Below are positions 1 through 15,703 of a DNA stretch of 20,000 bases, piece after piece. The DNA comes from an uncultured virus (IMG/VR IMGVR_UViG_2758568038_000001). Lineage: Duplodnaviria; Heunggongvirae; Uroviricota; Caudoviricetes. The first letter of the stretch is position 1. The number at the start of each line of letters is the position of its first letter. A model generated the notes under the pieces. The model had not been told where the DNA came from. It did not search any database and worked only from the letters and a program-made list of their open reading frames with translations. Where the stretch lies: the IMG/VR virus record IMGVR_UViG_2758568038_000001. One strand, given 5' to 3'. The position numbers and the translations under genes were made by a program.

Positions 1-651
1 ATGCCCGGCGACGCCTCCAGCACCGCAGCCGACGCCACCGAGTGGAAGATCGCCACGATCCAGGCTGTTGCAGCCGCCAAGGCTGTAGGCAAATTGCCTG
101 GTTCACTCCAGCGCTTCGTCGAAGACTCGACCCGGCCCCAGGTCGACTGGCGCGACCGTCTGCGCCAGTTCGTCACGCAGACCAACAAGGACGATTACAG
201 CTGGGCCCGACCCAACCGCCGCTATCTCAGCGCCGGTCTGTATCTGTCTGGCCTGTACAGCGAGAACATGGGGCCCGTTGTGGTCGGTATCGACACATCC
301 GGCTCCATCGACGATAAGACTCTGCAGACCTTCGGTGGCGAGATCCGCGCGCTCGTGCAGGCTGTACGCCCGTCCGAAGTCCACATCGTCTACTGCGACG
401 CCGAAGTGAACCACGTCGATGTTTTCTCGCCCTACGACGACATGAAGTTCGCCCCGCACGGCGGTGGCGGCACGGCGTTCAAGCCGGTATTCGACTACGT
501 GACCGAGAAGAACCTCAAGCCCGAGTGCCTGGTGTATTTGAGTGATCTTTATGGCGATCACCACTTCACCCCACCCGACTTCCCCACCCTGTGGTGCTGC
601 ACGACGAACGAGACCGCGTCGTTCGGTGACACGATTCGCATTGAGGTATAG
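1..651 (+). CDS. VWA-domain protein (DUF2201-like), probably 5'-truncated by the window edge
   Basis: MIDAS-like DTSGS motif, DWRxxL, YSWxRPNRR, GGGGTxF and YLSDLYG motifs typical of DUF2201/VWA-like proteins. Confidence 0.8.
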   Translation: MPGDASSTAADATEWKIATIQAVAAAKAVGKLPGSLQRFVEDSTRPQVDWRDRLRQFVTQTNKDDYSWARPNRRYLSAGLYLSGLYSENMGPVVVGIDTSGSIDDKTLQTFGGEIRALVQAVRPSEVHIVYCDAEVNHVDVFSPYDDMKFAPHGGGGTAFKPVFDYVTEKNLKPECLVYLSDLYGDHHFTPPDFPTLWCCTTNETASFGDTIRIEV

Positions 652-1512: not shown

Positions 1513-2864
1513 CCAAAGCCTTCGCACATCAGCTCAAGTCCCTCAAACACGACCTCACCACTGACGTCGTGTTCGACACCAGCGACCCCGGCACTGGCAA
1601 GACATTCGTCGCCATCAAAGCCTTCGAGCGCCGGCGCAAGAAAAAGACCGGCTGCGCTCTCATCCTCGCGCCAAAGTCCCTGCTGCGCAGCACCTGGGCG
1701 GCCGACTTCAAGAAGTTCGCCCCCGCACTCAAAGTCGTGGTGGCTACGGCTGACGTGCGCGCCTCGACATTCGACCAGGACGCCGACGCCTATGTCACCA
1801 ACACTGACGCCGTCAAGTGGCTGGCCAAGCAGCCCAAGGCGTTCTTCAAGCGCTTCGACACACTCATTGTTGATGAGTCCAGCGCCTACAAGCACGCCAC
1901 CAGTCTGCGCAGCAAAGCGGTTGCCAAGATCGCCAGCTACTTCAAATACAAGCGAGCGATGACCGGCACGCCCAACGGCCGCTCGATCACGGACGTGTGG
2001 CACCAGGTCATGCTGCTCGATGGCGGCCACCGCCTGGGCCGGTCGTTCTTCGCCTTCCGCAACAGCGTGTGCGTGCCTACCCAGGTCGGCCGCAACGACA
2101 AAGCAATTCGTTGGGACGACAAGGACGGCGCGGAAGAGGCCGTGTTCGGTCTGCTCAGCGACATCGTCATCCGCCACAAGTTCGAGGACTGCGTCGACAT
2201 CCCGGCCAACCACCGGTACACGATGAGCTACGAGCTGACGGCCAAGCAGCGCAAGGCCTACGACCAGATGGAGCAGACGCAGATGCTCTGGCTCAAAGGC
2301 AAGGAACCATCTGTCATCGCCGTCAACGCTGCCGTGGTGGCCAACAAGCTGCTGCAGGTCGCTTCAGGTGCCGTGTACGGTACAGGCCCGGACCCCGTCA
2401 TTGTCGACGACGGGCGCTACAAGATGGTGCTTGACCTGGTCGAAGAGCGCAAGCACAGCCTGGTGTTCTTCCACTGGAAGCATCAGCGCGATGCCCTAGC
2501 AGCCGAAGCCGACAAGCGGGGCATTGAGTTCTGCGTCATTGACGGCTCAGTGAATGAACATGAACGCGACCGCCTCGTTACTGCCTACCAGGCAGGGCGC
2601 TACCAAGTCATGTTCGCGCACCCCCGCTCCGCAGCCCACGGCCTCACGCTCACGCGCGGCACGGCCACGATCTGGGCCTCACCGACCTATGACCTGGAGC
2701 TGTTTGAGCAAGGCTCCAAGCGCCAGCACCGCATGGGCCAGACGCAGAAAACCGAGACCATCACGGTCCTCGCACCCGGCACGATTGACGAGCGGGTGTA
2801 CGAGATCCTGCAGAAGAAGAACGCCCGCATGTCCAACCTTCTCGACCTGTTCGCTACGCTATGA
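1509..2864 (+). CDS. SNF2-family (superfamily 2) DNA helicase
   Basis: Walker A DPGTGKT, LIVDESS, MTGTP, AAHGLTL, QGSKRQHRMGQ. Start moved to ATG 1509, which overlaps the upstream stop (ATGA). Confidence 0.9.
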   Translation: MTKAFAHQLKSLKHDLTTDVVFDTSDPGTGKTFVAIKAFERRRKKKTGCALILAPKSLLRSTWAADFKKFAPALKVVVATADVRASTFDQDADAYVTNTDAVKWLAKQPKAFFKRFDTLIVDESSAYKHATSLRSKAVAKIASYFKYKRAMTGTPNGRSITDVWHQVMLLDGGHRLGRSFFAFRNSVCVPTQVGRNDKAIRWDDKDGAEEAVFGLLSDIVIRHKFEDCVDIPANHRYTMSYELTAKQRKAYDQMEQTQMLWLKGKEPSVIAVNAAVVANKLLQVASGAVYGTGPDPVIVDDGRYKMVLDLVEERKHSLVFFHWKHQRDALAAEADKRGIEFCVIDGSVNEHERDRLVTAYQAGRYQVMFAHPRSAAHGLTLTRGTATIWASPTYDLELFEQGSKRQHRMGQTQKTETITVLAPGTIDERVYEILQKKNARMSNLLDLFATL

Positions 2865-3040
2865 AATTCTCTGACATCTTCCGCAAGCCCTCCGCGCGCA
2901 CATTGGCCCAGGTCGAGCTCGAGGAGGCCCAGCGCCAGCTCCTGCTGGCCCAAAGCAGCGCCGAGTACGCTGCTGCCATGGCGCAGTACCACCAAGAGCG
3001 CATCACCCGACTGCGGGCCATGCTGAATGAGGTTGCGTGA
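2861..3040 (+). CDS. Small helical hypothetical protein (59 aa, MKFSDIFRKPSARTLAQVELEEAQ...), absent from the ORF track
   Basis: Open frame exactly filling the helicase-polymerase gap, with ATGA overlap at its start and TGATG overlap with the polymerase start. Confidence 0.8.
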   Translation: MKFSDIFRKPSARTLAQVELEEAQRQLLLAQSSAEYAAAMAQYHQERITRLRAMLNEVA

Positions 3041-6018
3041 TGGGTTGGGCATCCGCTGTCCGTAAACCTACGGCCCAGACCAAGGTCGCCGCTGCCGTCA
3101 AGATCGTTTCTCGTCCGCAGATCGAGACGGCAGACGTCGACTGGGACCGGCTGGTCTCGCTTGACTTCGAAACTTTCTATGACGCCGACTACACGCTCTC
3201 CAAGTTGTCCACGTCCGAGTACGTGCGCGACGAGCGCTTTGAAGCGTCGATGGTCGGCATCAAGATCGGCAACAAAAAGACCAAGGTGGTGCCCCACAGC
3301 AAGATCGCCGCCGAGCTGGCCGCGATCAACTGGGAGACGCACAGCGTGCTGTGCCACAACATCCAGTTCGACGGCTTCATCCTGAGCCACCACTACGGTG
3401 TCTTCCCCAAGCGCTACTACTGCACCCTGGGCATGGCCCGGGGGCTGCACAGCAACGAAATTGGCGCAGGCCTGCACGACGTGTCGGTCTTTTACGGCGG
3501 CAAGGGCAAGATCGACGGCGGCGTCGAGGGCATGAAAGGCGTGCGCTTCAAGGAGCTTTTCGCCAACAAGCCCCTGTGGAAGCGCTCCGCCGAGTACTGC
3601 GCCAACGACGTCGACGAAACGTTCCGCATCTTCTGCGCCATGCACCCGCTGTTCCCGGCCAAGGAGATGGACCTGATCCACATGACGGCGCGCATGTTCT
3701 GCGCTCCGGTCCTGAAGATCGACATCCCGCGCGTCCAGACCGAGTACGAACGCGAGGTCACGCGCCGCGAAGAGCTGCTGCTGAACTTGCTGAACCCCCG
3801 TGACTACGACGATGTCCTCGACGGCAAAGACAAGAAGCTCGAAGGCAAAGAGCGCGACATGCGCATTGTCAAGAAAGTCGTCGGTAGCAACGAGCGCTTC
3901 GTTGCGCTGTTCGAAGCCCTCGGCATTGCACGCGATCAGCTGCCCCGCAAGCTGAGCCCCGCCTGGATGAAGAAAAACCAGGCCGAGCGCGAGGAAGCCA
4001 TCGACAGCAAGTGGGCCTTTGCCTTCGCCAAGGATGACCTGGACTTCGTCAGCATGCCCGATCGGGTGTGGGGGTACTTCCCTCACCTCGACCCGGCCAA
4101 CCCCAAAGACGTCCTGGAAGCAGCTGAGCTGTCCGAGAAGCTCCAGCAGCTGATCGACACGCGCATCGCGGTCAAGTCCACGATCAATATTACCCGGGCC
4201 GAGCGCTTCCTGAAGGCCGGCGCCAACGGTATGGCATTGCCTGTGGGCTATGCGTACTATCGCGCCCACACAGGCCGTTGGGGCGGCAACAACAAGATGA
4301 ACATGCAGAACCTCACCCGTGGTGGTGAGCTGCGCCTGTCCATCCTGGCCGACAAGGGCCACCAGATCGCTGTGGCCGACTCAGGCCAGATCGAAGCTCG
4401 CGTGAACGCGTGGCTGTGGGATCAGTTCGACCTTCTGGATGCGTTCCGCGACAAGCGTGACGTGTACAGCGAGTTCGCTACAGACATCTACGGCCGCAAG
4501 ATCACGAAGGAAGATAAGAACGACCGCCACGTAGGCAAGGTCTGCTTGGCTGGGGACACGCGCGTATTCACAAACCGTGGTCTTTTATCTATAACAGATG
4601 TAAAACCGACGGATTTACTATGGGACGGCCTCGAATGGGTAAAACACGACGGACTGATCTACCAGGGGTACAAGCCAGTACAAAAGCACCGGGGGCTGAG
4701 TGCGACCGGGGACCACGAAATTCTGACGGCACGTGGGTGGCAGGAGTGGCGCGAGGTCCGTACAAACCCTTCCCTATTCCAGTCGGCGCTATCTTTGGCG
4801 AACTCACCGTCGTGCGCTGGGAACCCTATGTCCGCGCCGATGGCAAGCTCGAAGGCCACCGGCCTGTTTGCCGCTGTACGTGCGGCAACGAGTCCCCTGT
4901 GGCCGCGGGCAACCTACGTGCTGGCCGTTCCACGCGCTGCAACGTGTGCGCCAAGCGCGCTTCCGCTGTCAAACGGTACCGGGTCTACAAGCACGCCATG
5001 GCGGATGACGACCACCGGGCGCGGCTACTCAACCGCCTTTCGTCTGCTATCAGTCGGTGCAGCAACCCGCGCAACGCATCGTATAAGCACTATGGCGAAC
5101 GCGGCATTGTCGTCTGGGATGGTTGGCGCAACGACCGAGCATCATTTTTGGTGTACGTGCAAACGCTTCCTGGCTGGGACGACCCGTCTCTGGAGTTTGA
5201 TAGGGTCGACAACGACGACAGCTACCGACCCGGCAATGTCCGGTTTGCAACCAAGTCTGTCAACACTGGCAACAAGCGCAAGGTCGAAAACCTGGAGCGG
5301 CGCATCCGCGAACTCGAAGACGAGAACGCACGTCTACGATCTCGCAAACGCCGGACCTCGTAGTCGCTTCACAGTCATGACCGATGACGGCCCCGTCATC
5401 GTCCATAACTGCGTTCTCGGGTTGGGCTATCAGATGGGCGCACCGAAGCTCCAGATGACTCTGGCCAAGGGTGCCCTGGGCGGCCCCAAGATCGCGCTGT
5501 CCATCGACCAGTGCCAGCACATCGTCAACACTTACCGGCGCAAGTATTACGCCATCAAACAGGGCTGGGATCGCAGCAAGGACTTCATCGAACACATGTC
5601 CAACCCGGACCTCGAGCCCATCCAGTACAAGTGTCTGGAGATCGGCTTCGAGTACATCCGCCTGCCCAACGGCATGTGTCTCAAGTACCCCGACCTGCGC
5701 ATGGCCAAGGGCGAAAAAGGCTGGGACGAGTGGAGCTACCAGTCAGGCGACATCCGCAAAAAGATCTACGGCGGCCTGCTGTGCGAAAACTTGGTGCAGG
5801 CCCTGGCCCGCATCATCGTCGCAGAGCAGATGCTGATGATCGACACGAAGTACCCCGTCGTGATGACGACACACGACGAAGCCGTCACGCACCCAAAGAC
5901 GAAGGACGCAGCCAAGTGCTACGCCTTCATGGAGAAGTGCATGACGACTCCGCTGTGGTGGTGCCCAGAAATCCCGCTCGCTGCTGAAGGCGGATTCGCG
6001 GAAAATTACAGTAAGTAG
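3040..6018 (+). CDS. Phage family A DNA polymerase with 3'-5' exonuclease domain, interrupted by an intein
   Basis: Exo motifs LDFETF, HNIQFD, YCANDV; AHTGRW; motif A ADSGQIEAR; motif B rebuilt after splicing as RHVGKV|CVLGLGYQMG; motif C TTHDE. Start is ATG 3040 or GTG 3037. Confidence 0.93.
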   Translation: MGWASAVRKPTAQTKVAAAVKIVSRPQIETADVDWDRLVSLDFETFYDADYTLSKLSTSEYVRDERFEASMVGIKIGNKKTKVVPHSKIAAELAAINWETHSVLCHNIQFDGFILSHHYGVFPKRYYCTLGMARGLHSNEIGAGLHDVSVFYGGKGKIDGGVEGMKGVRFKELFANKPLWKRSAEYCANDVDETFRIFCAMHPLFPAKEMDLIHMTARMFCAPVLKIDIPRVQTEYEREVTRREELLLNLLNPRDYDDVLDGKDKKLEGKERDMRIVKKVVGSNERFVALFEALGIARDQLPRKLSPAWMKKNQAEREEAIDSKWAFAFAKDDLDFVSMPDRVWGYFPHLDPANPKDVLEAAELSEKLQQLIDTRIAVKSTINITRAERFLKAGANGMALPVGYAYYRAHTGRWGGNNKMNMQNLTRGGELRLSILADKGHQIAVADSGQIEARVNAWLWDQFDLLDAFRDKRDVYSEFATDIYGRKITKEDKNDRHVGKVCLAGDTRVFTNRGLLSITDVKPTDLLWDGLEWVKHDGLIYQGYKPVQKHRGLSATGDHEILTARGWQEWREVRTNPSLFQSALSLANSPSCAGNPMSAPMASSKATGLFAAVRAATSPLWPRATYVLAVPRAATCAPSALPLSNGTGSTSTPWRMTTTGRGYSTAFRLLSVGAATRATHRISTMANAALSSGMVGATTEHHFWCTCKRFLAGTTRLWSLIGSTTTTATDPAMSGLQPSLSTLATSARSKTWSGASANSKTRTHVYDLANAGPRSRFTVMTDDGPVIVHNCVLGLGYQMGAPKLQMTLAKGALGGPKIALSIDQCQHIVNTYRRKYYAIKQGWDRSKDFIEHMSNPDLEPIQYKCLEIGFEYIRLPNGMCLKYPDLRMAKGEKGWDEWSYQSGDIRKKIYGGLLCENLVQALARIIVAEQMLMIDTKYPVVMTTHDEAVTHPKTKDAAKCYAFMEKCMTTPLWWCPEIPLAAEGGFAENYSK
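4581..4599 (+). promoter_or_regulatory. Repeated motif copy 1, TCTTTTATCTATAACAGAT (candidate phage operator or promoter)
   Basis: Matches the copies at 6721 and 10753 and contains an ATCT-N5-AGAT palindrome. A TTCACA(4567)-17 nt-TATAAC(4590) sigma70-like arrangement overlaps it. Confidence 0.5.
4620..5363 (+). CDS. HNH-type (beta-beta-alpha-metal) homing endonuclease nested in an alternative frame within the intein; start uncertain (ATG 4620, ATG 4635, GTG 4737 or GTG 4746)
   Basis: FGELTVV, CRCTCGN, NLRAGRSTRCNVC, RCSNPRNASYKHYGERGI and EFDRVDNDDSYRPGNVRFATKSVNTGNKR match the widespread phage YGGRGI...DRIDNDGNYEPGNCRWAT endonuclease pattern. Confidence 0.85.
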   Translation: MGRPRMGKTRRTDLPGVQASTKAPGAECDRGPRNSDGTWVAGVARGPYKPFPIPVGAIFGELTVVRWEPYVRADGKLEGHRPVCRCTCGNESPVAAGNLRAGRSTRCNVCAKRASAVKRYRVYKHAMADDDHRARLLNRLSSAISRCSNPRNASYKHYGERGIVVWDGWRNDRASFLVYVQTLPGWDDPSLEFDRVDNDDSYRPGNVRFATKSVNTGNKRKVENLERRIRELEDENARLRSRKRRTS

Positions 6019-13252: not shown

Positions 13253-13590
13253 TGACCGCACCGCGCTCGCTTGGCCTCATCGAGGCCGCCGCCCTGCTGC
13301 GTGTTCACAAGAACACGCTGGCAGCGCGTGCGCGAGCGCGGGTCATTCCCGGCGCAAAGATTGGTAAAGAGTGGGCTTTCCTGGAGGCCGACCTGGTGGC
13401 CTACATGCGGGCCCAGTACCAGGAGCCCCTATGCCCCTCTATAAGCAAGCTGGAACCGACATCTGGTCGGTCAACATTTCCGTCCCGGGTCACCCACGGG
13501 TACGTCGATCAACTGGAACGGCTGATCGCCTCGAAGCGCAGCGCATCCACGACGAGATCAAAGCGGGCCTCTGGTCTGCCCCCAAGCTGA
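13252..13590 (+). CDS. Excisionase-like HTH_17 protein
   Basis: EAAALLRVHKNTL..IPGAKIGKEWAF motif, immediately upstream of and overlapping the integrase. Confidence 0.85.
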   Translation: MTAPRSLGLIEAAALLRVHKNTLAARARARVIPGAKIGKEWAFLEADLVAYMRAQYQEPLCPSISKLEPTSGRSTFPSRVTHGYVDQLERLIASKRSASTTRSKRASGLPPS

Positions 13591-14414
13591 AAGGCAAGAC
13601 CTGGGGCGACGCCGTCGTCCACTGGTGCAAGCTGGCGGATCGCTCCGAATCTGATCTGCTGAGCCTGGCCAAGTTCGGCCGCAACTACAAGGACCGCGCG
13701 CTGCAGGACGTGACCCGCGAGAGCATCGTCGCCGCGCTGGCCTTCTGCCGCACACCCGCCACGTTCAACCGCTACCGCAATACTATCGCGGCCATCCTGC
13801 ATGCGGCCCAAGCCGAGGGCTGGCTGCGCGACGTGCCCAAGCTGCCGGTGCGCGACGTGCAGGCAAAGCCCCGCGAGTGGATCACCCCGGAGCAGTGGGG
13901 CAAGCTGTATGTGCAGCTGCCCCAGCACCAGCGAATGATGGCCACCTTCGCCATCGAGACCGGGCTTCGGCAGGCCAACGTCCTGGGCCTGACCTGGGAC
14001 CGCGTGAGCATTGAGCGCGCTGTGGTCTGGATCGAGGCCCCGGACATGAAGGCCCGCCACGCCCTGGGCATCCCGCTCAACGACCGCGCCATTGAGGTGC
14101 TGAAGGCCGAGCTGGGCAAGCACGAGGTCTGGGTGTTCACGTTCCGTGGCAAGCCCATCAAAGAGATCAAGACGGCCTTTCAAGCGGCGTGCGTGCGCGC
14201 CGGGGTGGGCCAGACCGTCGATGGCCTGTACCAGGGCTTTACCTGGCACGGCCTTCGGCACACCTGGGCCACCTGGCACCTGCAGAACGGCACACCCCGT
14301 GACGTACTGCAGAAGCTGGGCGGCTGGGAAGACGAGCGCATGGTCCAGAACTATGCGCACCACTCGCCGGGCTACCTGGCGCAATTTGCTAACAACGTGA
14401 GGAAGAAATCATGA
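13431..14414 (+). CDS. int: Tyrosine recombinase (phage integrase)
   Basis: SD AGGAG before ATG 13431; catalytic R (TGLR), K (DMKA), HGLRH, W (LGGW) and Y (NYAH). Confidence 0.93.
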   Translation: MPLYKQAGTDIWSVNISVPGHPRVRRSTGTADRLEAQRIHDEIKAGLWSAPKLKGKTWGDAVVHWCKLADRSESDLLSLAKFGRNYKDRALQDVTRESIVAALAFCRTPATFNRYRNTIAAILHAAQAEGWLRDVPKLPVRDVQAKPREWITPEQWGKLYVQLPQHQRMMATFAIETGLRQANVLGLTWDRVSIERAVVWIEAPDMKARHALGIPLNDRAIEVLKAELGKHEVWVFTFRGKPIKEIKTAFQAACVRAGVGQTVDGLYQGFTWHGLRHTWATWHLQNGTPRDVLQKLGGWEDERMVQNYAHHSPGYLAQFANNVRKKS

Positions 14415-14853: not shown

Positions 14854-15218
14854 AAACCACCGACCAACTCTACGAAGAGCTCCGCGCCGTGATCGACAAC
14901 GGCAGCGAGTCGATGACCCACGAGGATGCGCTCGAACATGTGCGTGCGCTGCAGGCGGCCACGGAGGTTGTACATGGCCGGTACACCGTCCTGGTGCTGC
15001 GCCCGGACTGGATTGCTGACCCATACGGCCAGGACACCTACATGGCGCACGTCATGGCGGGCAGCGTTGAAACGGCCCAGATCGCCGCGCAGCGCGAAGC
15101 GTATCAATGCGACGCCTCTCCAGACGACGAGGGTTACGGCGACCCAGACTTCTGGTCCGACTACTTCGTGCTGGCGGTGTTCGAGGGGCACCTCAGCGAC
15201 AAGCGGGTGACGGAATGA
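14850..15218 (+). CDS. Acidic hypothetical protein
   Basis: SD GGAGGAG; ATGA overlaps at both ends. Confidence 0.75.
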   Translation: MKTTDQLYEELRAVIDNGSESMTHEDALEHVRALQAATEVVHGRYTVLVLRPDWIADPYGQDTYMAHVMAGSVETAQIAAQREAYQCDASPDDEGYGDPDFWSDYFVLAVFEGHLSDKRVTE

Positions 15219-15703
15219 GCGCTCTGACACTCGAGCGCGCCCGAGAGCTGCTTTGCTATGACCCAACCACAGGGCTGTTGACTTGGAAGGTCAGGGCCGG
15301 CCCTCGCGCCCTGCAAGGCGGCGTCGCGGGGTACCTCGACAAGAAGGGCTACGTCTACGTAGGGCTGGACGGCAAGTATTACTTTGGGCATCGGGTGGCT
15401 TGGCTGCTGCACTTCGGCCGGTGGCCTGCGGGGCAGGTCGACCACTGGGATGAAGTAAAGAGCAACAACCGTATATCCAACCTCCGCGAAGTGACCTCGG
15501 TCGAGAATATGCACAACCAGCGCCAAGCCAGGAAACACAACCGGCTCGGGCTGCGTGGTGTCTCGAAGAACCACACCAAGTTCCAGGCTGAGATCCTCGC
15601 CGACGGAAAGCGTATCTACCTCGGGGTGTTCGACACACCCCTCGAAGCGCACGCGGCATATCTCGCCGCCAAGAAACAGTACCACCCGACCAGCGCACGC
15701 TGA
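15215..15703 (+). CDS. Free-standing HNH endonuclease with C-terminal AP2-like domain
   Basis: YDPTTG.LTW, HRVAW, VDHWDEVKSNNRISNLRE, then LRGVS..FQAEI..RIYLGVFDTPLEAHAAY. Confidence 0.9.
   Translation: MSALTLERARELLCYDPTTGLLTWKVRAGPRALQGGVAGYLDKKGYVYVGLDGKYYFGHRVAWLLHFGRWPAGQVDHWDEVKSNNRISNLREVTSVENMHNQRQARKHNRLGLRGVSKNHTKFQAEILADGKRIYLGVFDTPLEAHAAYLAAKKQYHPTSAR

Follow-up and report, generated by a model that had tools for sequence, protein, structure and literature searches.

A putative homing endonuclease gene nested out of frame within the intein of a phage family-A DNA polymerase

When an intein retains its splicing blocks and shows no recognisable endonuclease in its own reading frame, it may be asked whether a mobile nuclease is nevertheless written in the same DNA in another frame. 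This question is raised by a locus in a 20,000-nucleotide stretch of DNA (hereafter, the window) from an uncultured virus of the Caudoviricetes (IMG/VR record IMGVR_UViG_2758568038_000001), in which an insert interrupts the gene for a family-A DNA polymerase. A first-pass annotation of the window had taken the insert to be an intein whose endonuclease is encoded separately, in a fully overlapping frame. The analysis reported here favors, with a probability of roughly 0.78, a dual-coding homing element that comprises a mini-intein in the polymerase frame and a free putative nuclease in the -1 frame. The three features concerned are as follows.

3037..6018, + strand: open reading frame (ORF) of the family-A DNA polymerase precursor, 993 amino acids (DNA_pol_A in Pfam, E=6.5e-12; phrog_17, E=9.9e-63)
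4543..5409, + strand: class-1 intein of 289 amino acids in the polymerase frame, inserted into motif B of Pol A with RHVGKV before it and CVLGLGYQMG after it
4620..5363, + strand: nested -1-frame (= +2) ORF, terminated by TAG at 5361-5363, for an HNH_3-like putative homing endonuclease

On either side of the insert, the window polymerase shares 36-41% identity with the intein-less polymerase of Pseudomonas phage KPP25, in which the motif B region is uninterrupted (HVGKTSILGLGYGMG); the intein-less junction of the window polymerase corresponds to GGCAAGGTC joined to TGCGTTCTCGGG. The polymerase frame is open throughout 4543-5409, and the insert starts with CLAGDTRV and ends with VIVHN, followed by Cys. 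The block A nucleophile is the Cys at 4543-4545, the TxxH motif of block B is TGDH in the window, and the C-terminus with its following Cys occupies 5395-5412, where the +1 residue is Cys or Ser among relatives. C1, T55, H58, D266 and N289 are invariant in an alignment of 38 sequences. Protein splicing of the window precursor, with a predicted spliced polymerase of 704 amino acids, is expected because motif B, which is essential, is broken by the insert and is continuous in homologues that lack an intein.

A RecA mini-intein profile matches the polymerase-frame intein through its block B stretch (E=5.6e-5), and the intein middle has no Pfam match at E<=0.1. In the AlphaFold2 model of the polymerase-frame intein, the pLDDT score (predicted local distance difference test) passes from ~98 to ~35 and back to ~97 along the chain, and residues 94-255 are without secondary structure. 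The product of this frame is accordingly modelled as a HINT domain whose two lobes are separated by a disordered linker, with the following predicted parts.

4543..4812, + strand: HINT N-lobe, intein residues 1-90, with blocks A, N2, B and N4 (pLDDT 89-98)
4822..5307, + strand: polymerase-frame linker, intein residues 94-255, a stop-free, disordered off-frame reading of the nuclease gene (pLDDT 30-47)
5320..5409, + strand: HINT C-lobe, residues 260-289, with blocks F and G (VYDL ... VIVHN; pLDDT 96-97)

The best Foldseek matches to the intein model are the DnaB, DnaX, gp41-1 and RecA mini-inteins (probability 1.00, E=3e-4 to 1e-3). The description given in the first-pass annotation, namely intact splicing blocks around a stop-free middle that lacks a recognised endonuclease, holds in all its coordinates.

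The -1 frame encodes a protein of 247 amino acids if read from the ATG at 4620, or of 242 amino acids from the ATG at 4635. Its AlphaFold2 model has a mean pLDDT of 83.5, with ten-residue block means of 42-59 for residues 1-50 and 82-97 for residues 51-247, and contains a beta-barrel, a helical region and a beta-beta-alpha element. Structural and profile-based prediction of both frames, as proposed in the first-pass annotation, thus sets two mini-intein lobes with a disordered linker against a well-folded -1-frame protein. Both models were computed from alignments of 38 sequences, which left aside the loci known solely from GenBank. Two elements of the latter stand out by their conservation in the 38 sequences.

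4875..4949, + strand: Cys4 cluster of the nested protein, with invariant C86, C88, C107 and C110, in a small beta-barrel (residues ~52-105)
5193..5273, + strand: predicted beta-beta-alpha element, residues 192-218 (FDRVDNDDSYRPGNVRFATKSVNTGN), with invariant D194-R195, N206 and N218

Strands are predicted at residues 192-195 and 207-210, and helices at 212-218 and, C-terminally, at 222-246. The nested protein matches phrog_374, labelled 'HNH endonuclease', over residues 56-222 (E=4.5e-33), and three further PHROG nuclease families (phrog_3377, 2081 and 8790) at E<=5e-17; phrog_1035, 'endonuclease VII', is a weak match (E=5.7e-6), and Pfam gives no match to Endonuclease_7 (IPR004211 / PF02945). 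Free-standing relatives of the protein are annotated as HNH endonucleases in many phages. A profile search of PDB gave no meaningful match, and hence no solved relative by sequence. In a wide search with VIA-align, all matches to the model had Z<=5.5, below the level that the tool deems trustworthy; the HNH restriction enzyme PacI ranked second (Z 5.0, root-mean-square deviation 3.4, 85 residues, model residues 116-220), and the beta-barrel aligned weakly with Tudor/CarD-type domains (Z 4.2-4.5). In a protein atlas the nested protein falls among unnamed viral clusters, and the named neighbors, NUMOD and AP2, with scores of 0.82-0.83, are leads only. The beta-beta-alpha element, with its invariant Asn residues, looks like the second half of the HNH_3 motif: an hhalign comparison with the HNH_3 protein encoded elsewhere in the window (15107-15700) aligned 23 columns in that half, 'YePGNLRF.Tr.eN..NkR' against 'NRISNLREVTSVENMHNQR', with E=0.003 and a probability of 10%. 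The ORF announced by the first-pass annotation, its TAG and a PHROG nuclease match are all present; its designation as 'HNH-type' has to be softened, given that it derives from PHROG labels and this weak motif match, with no Pfam HNH family.

The same layout recurs widely. A tblastn search of 50,697 phage records with the nested protein yielded matches in 811, with the best ones in Pseudomonas phage MR14 and numerous Jerseyvirus phages of Salmonella; in both groups the homologous ORF likewise lies in the +2 frame of the annotated polymerase; a blastn search of the phage collection with positions 4300-5700 gave no match at the DNA level. A pattern search of viral contigs with an alignment (A1) returned 55 loci. 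The two-frame layout was found in 57 loci (56 and the window; two from GenBank), with genome GC contents of 36-66%, and each of them pairs a nuclease homologue of at least 39% identity in the +2 frame with an open polymerase ORF, longer than 450 amino acids, in the adjoining frame. No open frame of this kind overlaps the free-standing homologues that are more remote (L004-L011; 30-39% identity). The start and end of the intein were located in 55 loci, after exclusion of one locus that ends at a contig end (L033) and one without the WDG motif used by the script (L070), which gave 49 distinct inteins of 253-299 amino acids. Among these inteins, recruited like all loci through the nuclease, the polymerase frame contains no stop codon in 49 of 49, and the remaining (third) frame contains 8-41.

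When the nuclease part of the window was shuffled among synonymous codons, the polymerase frame stayed free of stops in 11 of 2000 shuffles; the polymerase-frame stops generated in this way averaged 3.3 (3.07 for the window), against 0 observed, and the median stop-free fraction over the 49 inteins was 0.009. The open polymerase frame is not a product of chance. Contigs of the metagenome run X1 span 4494-5490 without gaps and differ from the window at five bases and at one base, and no insertion or deletion relative to the window is listed in any of four runs; X1 is not counted as independent, because it may be the window's own source sample. Sequencing error is excluded as the origin of the layout by these gapless contigs together with the 57 loci, which settles the possibility of compensating indels that the first-pass annotation had named as a refutation.

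Selection was examined by codon-phase diversity in an alignment of 48 distinct inteins (L055, described below, was excluded), from which 40 representatives with less than 90% nucleotide identity were taken. From 4545 to ~4735, the third codon position of the polymerase frame is the most variable (0.48-0.70, compared with 0.20-0.57 for the other two). From ~4740 to ~5320, the most variable position is the third position of the -1 frame, which is the second position of the polymerase frame (0.53-0.72, compared with 0.13-0.62 for the first and second positions), and from ~5325 to 5409 it is again the third position of the polymerase frame. The hand-over zones are short (~4735-4785 and ~5320-5363), and in the latter the last dozen codons of the nested ORF overlap intein block F. 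Because the most variable position switches frame at ~4740 and ~5325, it is concluded that the splicing lobes are under purifying selection in the polymerase frame, as is the nested protein in the -1 frame. No signal of selection for a hydrophilic or disordered linker beyond the avoidance of stops was obtained from the 40 representatives: the hydrophobic fraction of the linker is 0.277, compared with 0.270 in synonymous shuffles (mean z +0.96), in a test that is conservative because the shuffle retains the codon pool. Stop avoidance is the sole constraint detected on the polymerase-frame middle.

A related intein occupies another polymerase site in the P45 DNA polymerase of phage APSE-5 (EU794055, 1-2322; locus L072). 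It contains VWDGIEWV ... EVYDL ... GPLIVHN, and its junctions are YGGKL followed by CLAKGTLV at the N-terminal side and LIVHN followed by CENICQ at the C-terminal side. Its nested ORF (1367-2017) encodes a 216-amino-acid homologue with 31% identity to the window protein and lies in the +1 frame, with the polymerase frame open; the out-of-frame state is therefore not tied to one frame. Because this homologue sits in a different frame, the comparison favors an origin by invasion of free-standing genes over one accidental frameshift. In Ralstonia phage Gamede (H146) and Sodalis phage SO-1 (H105), other homologues lie under features named 'DarB-like antirestriction' and 'gp38 / gp39', and these may be further nested or gene-splitting copies.

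How the nested gene could be translated is suggested by a signal within the N-lobe. The two Trp codons of the conserved intein motif LWDGxEWV give rise to ATG codons in the -1 frame, at 4620 and 4635, and the second of these is preceded by a sequence that resembles a Shine-Dalgarno (SD) element and is likewise written within the LWDGxEWV codons.

4622..4637, + strand: likely translation start of the nested gene, with SD-like GGGACGG at 4622-4628, a 6-nucleotide spacer and ATG at 4635-4637

In 33 of 44 distinct sequences an A stands immediately 5' of the second TGG, irrespective of the codon to which it belongs (GAA, TCA, GCA, CAA or AAA), and in 30 of 44 an A stands 5' of the first. Relative to expectation from the codon usage of each gene, A precedes the second TGG in 30 of 39 representatives against 12.3 expected (Poisson-binomial P=3e-11) and the first TGG in 26 of 40 against 5.5 (P=2e-15), both P values being inflated because the representatives are mutually related. 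For 40 of 40 representatives, the predicted energy of pairing between GGGAYGG, upstream of the ATG at 4635, and the anti-SD is between -6.0 and -7.7 kcal/mol, compared with a background median of -2.3, and ranks on average within the top 6% of the positions of those genes. The ATG at 4620 has no consistent SD-like signal (12.5% of the representatives fall in the top fifth of the background). A simple consensus scan, which does not prove absence, found no sigma-70-like promoter in 4000-5600. The window has a GC content of 62%, with a dip to 0.42-0.50 across 4540-4690, where the rare AT-rich codons TTA, ATA, GTA and AAA occur; in 39 of 40 representatives, the GC content of the intein element is below that of the exteins, including around the nested start. 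The start codon used by the nested gene is thus most plausibly the ATG at 4635. The first-pass proposal of a separate nuclease, with the intein frame merely kept open for splicing, draws support from this conserved ATG, from the frame-wise selection and stop avoidance seen across homologues, as it had suggested comparing, and from the HINT/linker model.

Polymorphism at the insertion site points to mobility. The polymerase of Jerseyvirus ER7 (L071; 733 amino acids) lacks exactly the intein present in the precursor of EnJE6 (L001; 1034 amino acids), and the exteins of the two are 98% identical on the N side and 93% on the C side. The N-side differences gather in the last dozen residues before the site (KKERKDLRQIGKAC compared with KKNFKDIRQIGKAC), a pattern that resembles co-conversion tracts or target-site divergence. 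In X1, two contigs join 4541 to 5409, with four letters ambiguous at the joint, and thereby omit 867 nucleotides, the exact length of the intein; intein-bearing contigs occur alongside them. Presence and absence of the element thus vary at one exact site, both among close relatives and within one metagenome. The same motif-B site is occupied in spite of very different exteins, the residues after the junction being CVLGLGYQ, CGYGMGGA, CELGLGYE or CGYQGSVG. In L055 (2501-3289), the nuclease ORF is conserved except for one in-frame stop (CAKK, stop, SGYW), and the polymerase frame is intact; this locus represents a copy that was inactivated recently or, alternatively, an error of sequencing, and its pattern would be expected from the degenerative phase of a homing cycle. 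In a separate observation on the wastewater run X4, contigs depart from the window after 4550 into letters that still resemble an intein start, which may represent a different intein allele at the same site, and the extein flanks are far deeper than the intein.

The dual-coding element would work as follows. Ribosomes in the polymerase frame would produce the 993-amino-acid precursor, in which an effective mini-intein (residues 1-90 and 260-289) has its two lobes joined by a disordered linker of ~165 residues that is the off-frame reading of another gene and for which freedom from stop codons is the only detectable requirement; protein splicing would then restore motif B (RHVGKV-CVLGLGYQMG) and the 704-amino-acid polymerase. 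In the -1 frame, independent initiation at an ATG inside the LWDGxEWV codons, likeliest that at 4635 behind GGGACGG, with 4620 as the alternative, would give a free protein of ~242-247 amino acids, with a disordered N-terminus, the Cys4 beta-barrel, a helical domain, the beta-beta-alpha element and a long C-terminal helix. The presumed role of this protein is to cut or nick polymerase alleles that lack the intein, and repair would copy the intein together with the nuclease as one unit into the cut allele, that is, by homing. A more specific version is offered only tentatively: LWDGxEWV may have been co-opted as a ribosome-binding site and start, so that polymerase translation would compete with nuclease initiation, and the beta-beta-alpha element may be an active nuclease with Arg for His, a catalytic variant as yet uncharacterised.

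Two other accounts of the layout dispense with a free, functional nested protein. Programmed -1 frameshifting would yield a fusion of the N-extein, the N-intein and the nuclease, and the window has a candidate site.

4764..4770, + strand: heptamer A_AAC_CCT, phased such that a -1 slip would move ribosomes from the polymerase to the nuclease frame

The nuclease frame is indeed the -1 frame, and this in-phase X_XXY_YYZ heptamer lies just 5' of the conserved part of the nuclease in the window. However, an in-phase heptamer upstream of that part occurs in 15 of 50 distinct sequences and at the window position in 3 of 50; the conserved ATG and its SD-like signal lie upstream; and in the related APSE-5 intein the nuclease ORF is in the +1 frame, out of reach of a -1 slip. 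The heptamer is probably incidental, and frameshifting, rejected as the route of expression for want of a conserved slippery site, is given very little credence. Internal initiation at the ATG at 4635, or alternatively at 4620, is preferred, because that ATG and the SD-like sequence are conserved and the frameshift site is not. Even smaller is the weight left to an artefact or relic, in which compensating indel errors would hide an in-frame HNH intein, or a dead remnant would be open by accident. In the window, at 62% GC, long spurious ORFs are common, as exemplified by a 502-amino-acid antisense ORF (2854..4362, - strand) that lies opposite the polymerase N-extein and is probably a high-GC artefact. 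Against this reading stand the gapless contigs of X1 (possibly the source sample of the window), the occurrence of the layout at GC contents down to 36%, the third-position variability indicative of purifying selection on the -1 frame and the confident fold of its product; it is also weak evidence against it that none of 1026 candidate proteins of 434-2000 amino acids had the nuclease domain in frame at E<=1e-10. The conservation data refute the artefact or relic reading.

A further alternative accepts that the nested protein is expressed and denies that it is a homing nuclease: it might be a dead HNH_3-like DNA-binding protein, in an intein that is mainly inherited vertically. This is considered unlikely, yet it bears on the weakest link of the dual-coding interpretation, the assignment as a nuclease, and several results weigh against that interpretation here. 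HNH enzymes have a D-H...N motif in which a general-base His is expected after the conserved Asp, and the HNH_3 proteins show a DH consensus where the nested protein has DR; in 38 of 38 sequences, R195 directly follows the invariant D194 and His is not there. The window protein has no Pfam match at E<=0.1, none of 38 members matches a Pfam family, HNH or other, and NCBIfam has no family for it. Structural matches are weak, Foldseek giving none in PDB at E<=0.001 and PacI, the best-scoring nuclease in the structural search, reaching just Z 5.0. The expression signals are also qualified, beyond the inflated P values: the SD-like sequence could be a by-product of intein conservation, because it is built of the invariant W-D-G codons; a -1-frame stop follows the usual ATG in 5 of 44 distinct sequences, which must start elsewhere (later) or be broken, as in L055; and among all contigs of the public runs, the RNA-labelled ones span the extein flanks only and are uninformative on expression. 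Because of the Arg in place of the expected His, the protein is named here an HNH_3-like putative homing endonuclease and not a canonical HNH enzyme. Against the non-nuclease alternative speak the polymorphism exactly at the intein borders, found in polymerases of 98% identity and within one metagenome, the filling of the same site in highly divergent exteins, the low GC content of the element relative to its exteins, the annotation of free-standing relatives as HNH endonucleases and the invariance of the motif Asn residues. The dual-coding element with a putative nuclease activity, suggested by sequence comparison, and with homing of the intein and nuclease as a unit, is the reading retained.

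Genes for an exonuclease, a helicase, a ligase and a nucleotide kinase accompany that of the polymerase in a replication module. A 4.4-Mb genome contains one copy of the element, and a 32.6-kb viral contig (L003) represents the same stretch; the stretch that bears the element is a prophage. Two further genes of the window are listed here.

13371-14411: integrase gene
15107-15700, + strand: free-standing HNH_3 endonuclease gene (Pfam E=6.8e-17; phrog_99, E=1.1e-61)

The latter, canonical in type and just past the integrase gene, is a second mobile-nuclease gene in the same element. An ORF at 1-648 (+ strand) matches phrog_1314, 'HNH endonuclease' (E=4.4e-60), but in Pfam it matches DUF2201 (VWA-like) and a putative metallopeptidase domain, and its PHROG label is doubtful.

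The caution in the first-pass annotation that novelty would require a literature check proved apt, the architecture having been in print since 2025-26. Layouts of this type are already described (Gorbalenya, 1998, as cited; Gosselin et al., 2025; Phillips et al., 2026). Gosselin, Arsenault and Gogarten (bioRxiv 10.1101/2025.01.02.630785) described inteins of actinobacteriophages in which an endonuclease VII-like enzyme lies 'in reading frame 3', termed the type previously unreported and forecast that it has been widely missed. As in the window, the endonuclease slot of these phage inteins is filled in frame 3 by an endonuclease ORF of the same strand, no structure is recognisable in the in-frame reading, and the layout is proposed to have arisen when a free-standing endonuclease gene invaded an intein. 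In contrast, the window family occurs on phages and prophages annotated for Gram-negative hosts (Salmonella, Pseudomonas, Escherichia and Proteus) and on uncultured viral contigs of unknown host, and the words 'Salmonella' and 'Pseudomonas' do not appear in the accessible text of that report; the host gene and site, Pol A motif B, are different; and the window nuclease lacks a Pfam Endonuclease_7 match and has its catalytic-like element at the C-terminus, whereas theirs matched 1E7D with residues 1-67. Phillips, DeSimone and Gogarten (bioRxiv 10.64898/2026.09.14.751524) described a LAGLIDADG homing endonuclease in a +2 ORF of a cyanobacterial dnaX intein and credited Gorbalenya (1998) with the first proposal. 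That intein shares with the window a +2 ORF inside the intein and frame-dependent selection, with a low omega in the endonuclease frame; it differs in that its enzyme is of the LAGLIDADG type and resides in a cyanobacterial cellular gene, and the accessible portion of the paper contains no start-codon or SD analysis.

Other known systems share single traits with the element. The ShiLan domain (Arsenault et al., 2025, PMC11855218) is an HNH endonuclease hidden out of frame within the gene for a phage DNA methylase; as in the window, an HNH gene is overprinted on a stop-free host ORF and the same question arises of how the hidden frame is translated. There, splicing domains are absent and the insert remains as a loop in the host protein, whereas the window has a HINT domain that would remove it; no ribosome-binding site was detected and leaderless initiation was proposed, whereas the window family has a conserved SD-like sequence and ATG. 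In fractured genes (Dassa et al., 2009, PMC2677866), split inteins flank a free-standing endonuclease gene, so that an endonuclease of free-standing type likewise sits in the intein slot and is made as a separate protein; the host gene and intein there form two ORFs joined by trans-splicing, whereas the window polymerase frame is continuous and cis-splicing is expected. The HNH_3 (PF13392) phage homing endonucleases have in common with the nested protein a predicted beta-beta-alpha element and the motif half ...NLR..T..eN..N.., and both are phage-borne with many free-standing copies; unlike them, the nested protein has no Pfam HNH_3 match and carries an additional Cys4 barrel and helical domain. 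The accessible portion of a Jerseyvirus genome paper (PMC8425127) mentions inteins and not the overlapping gene, and full-text searches, whose reach did not include bioRxiv supplements, found no literature on this Pol A motif-B intein family.

The motif-B element is a further case of the layout described in 2025-26, and probably represents a very large family. What is newly added is a map of the frame switches, a conserved ATG and SD-like signal inside an intein block, an empty allele in a natural population, an Arg-for-His substitution in the putative nuclease, and a +1-frame variant in APSE. The gene is entered simply as 'DNA polymerase' or 'intein-containing DNA polymerase precursor' in hundreds of GenBank phage records, of which 155 are from Salmonella phages, many of these Jerseyvirus, and because these records name the polymerase or intein only, the overprinted nuclease gene has generally been missed. 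For annotators, this is a warning that full mobility is possible in inteins classed as 'decaying' or 'endonuclease-less'. With diverged sequences of 36-66% GC, the family forms a large natural data set of two proteins on one DNA, one of whose readings just avoids stops, and it bears on how a hidden frame is initiated and on the gain of endonucleases by inteins through invasion, the 'splicing first' view discussed by Gosselin et al. (2025).

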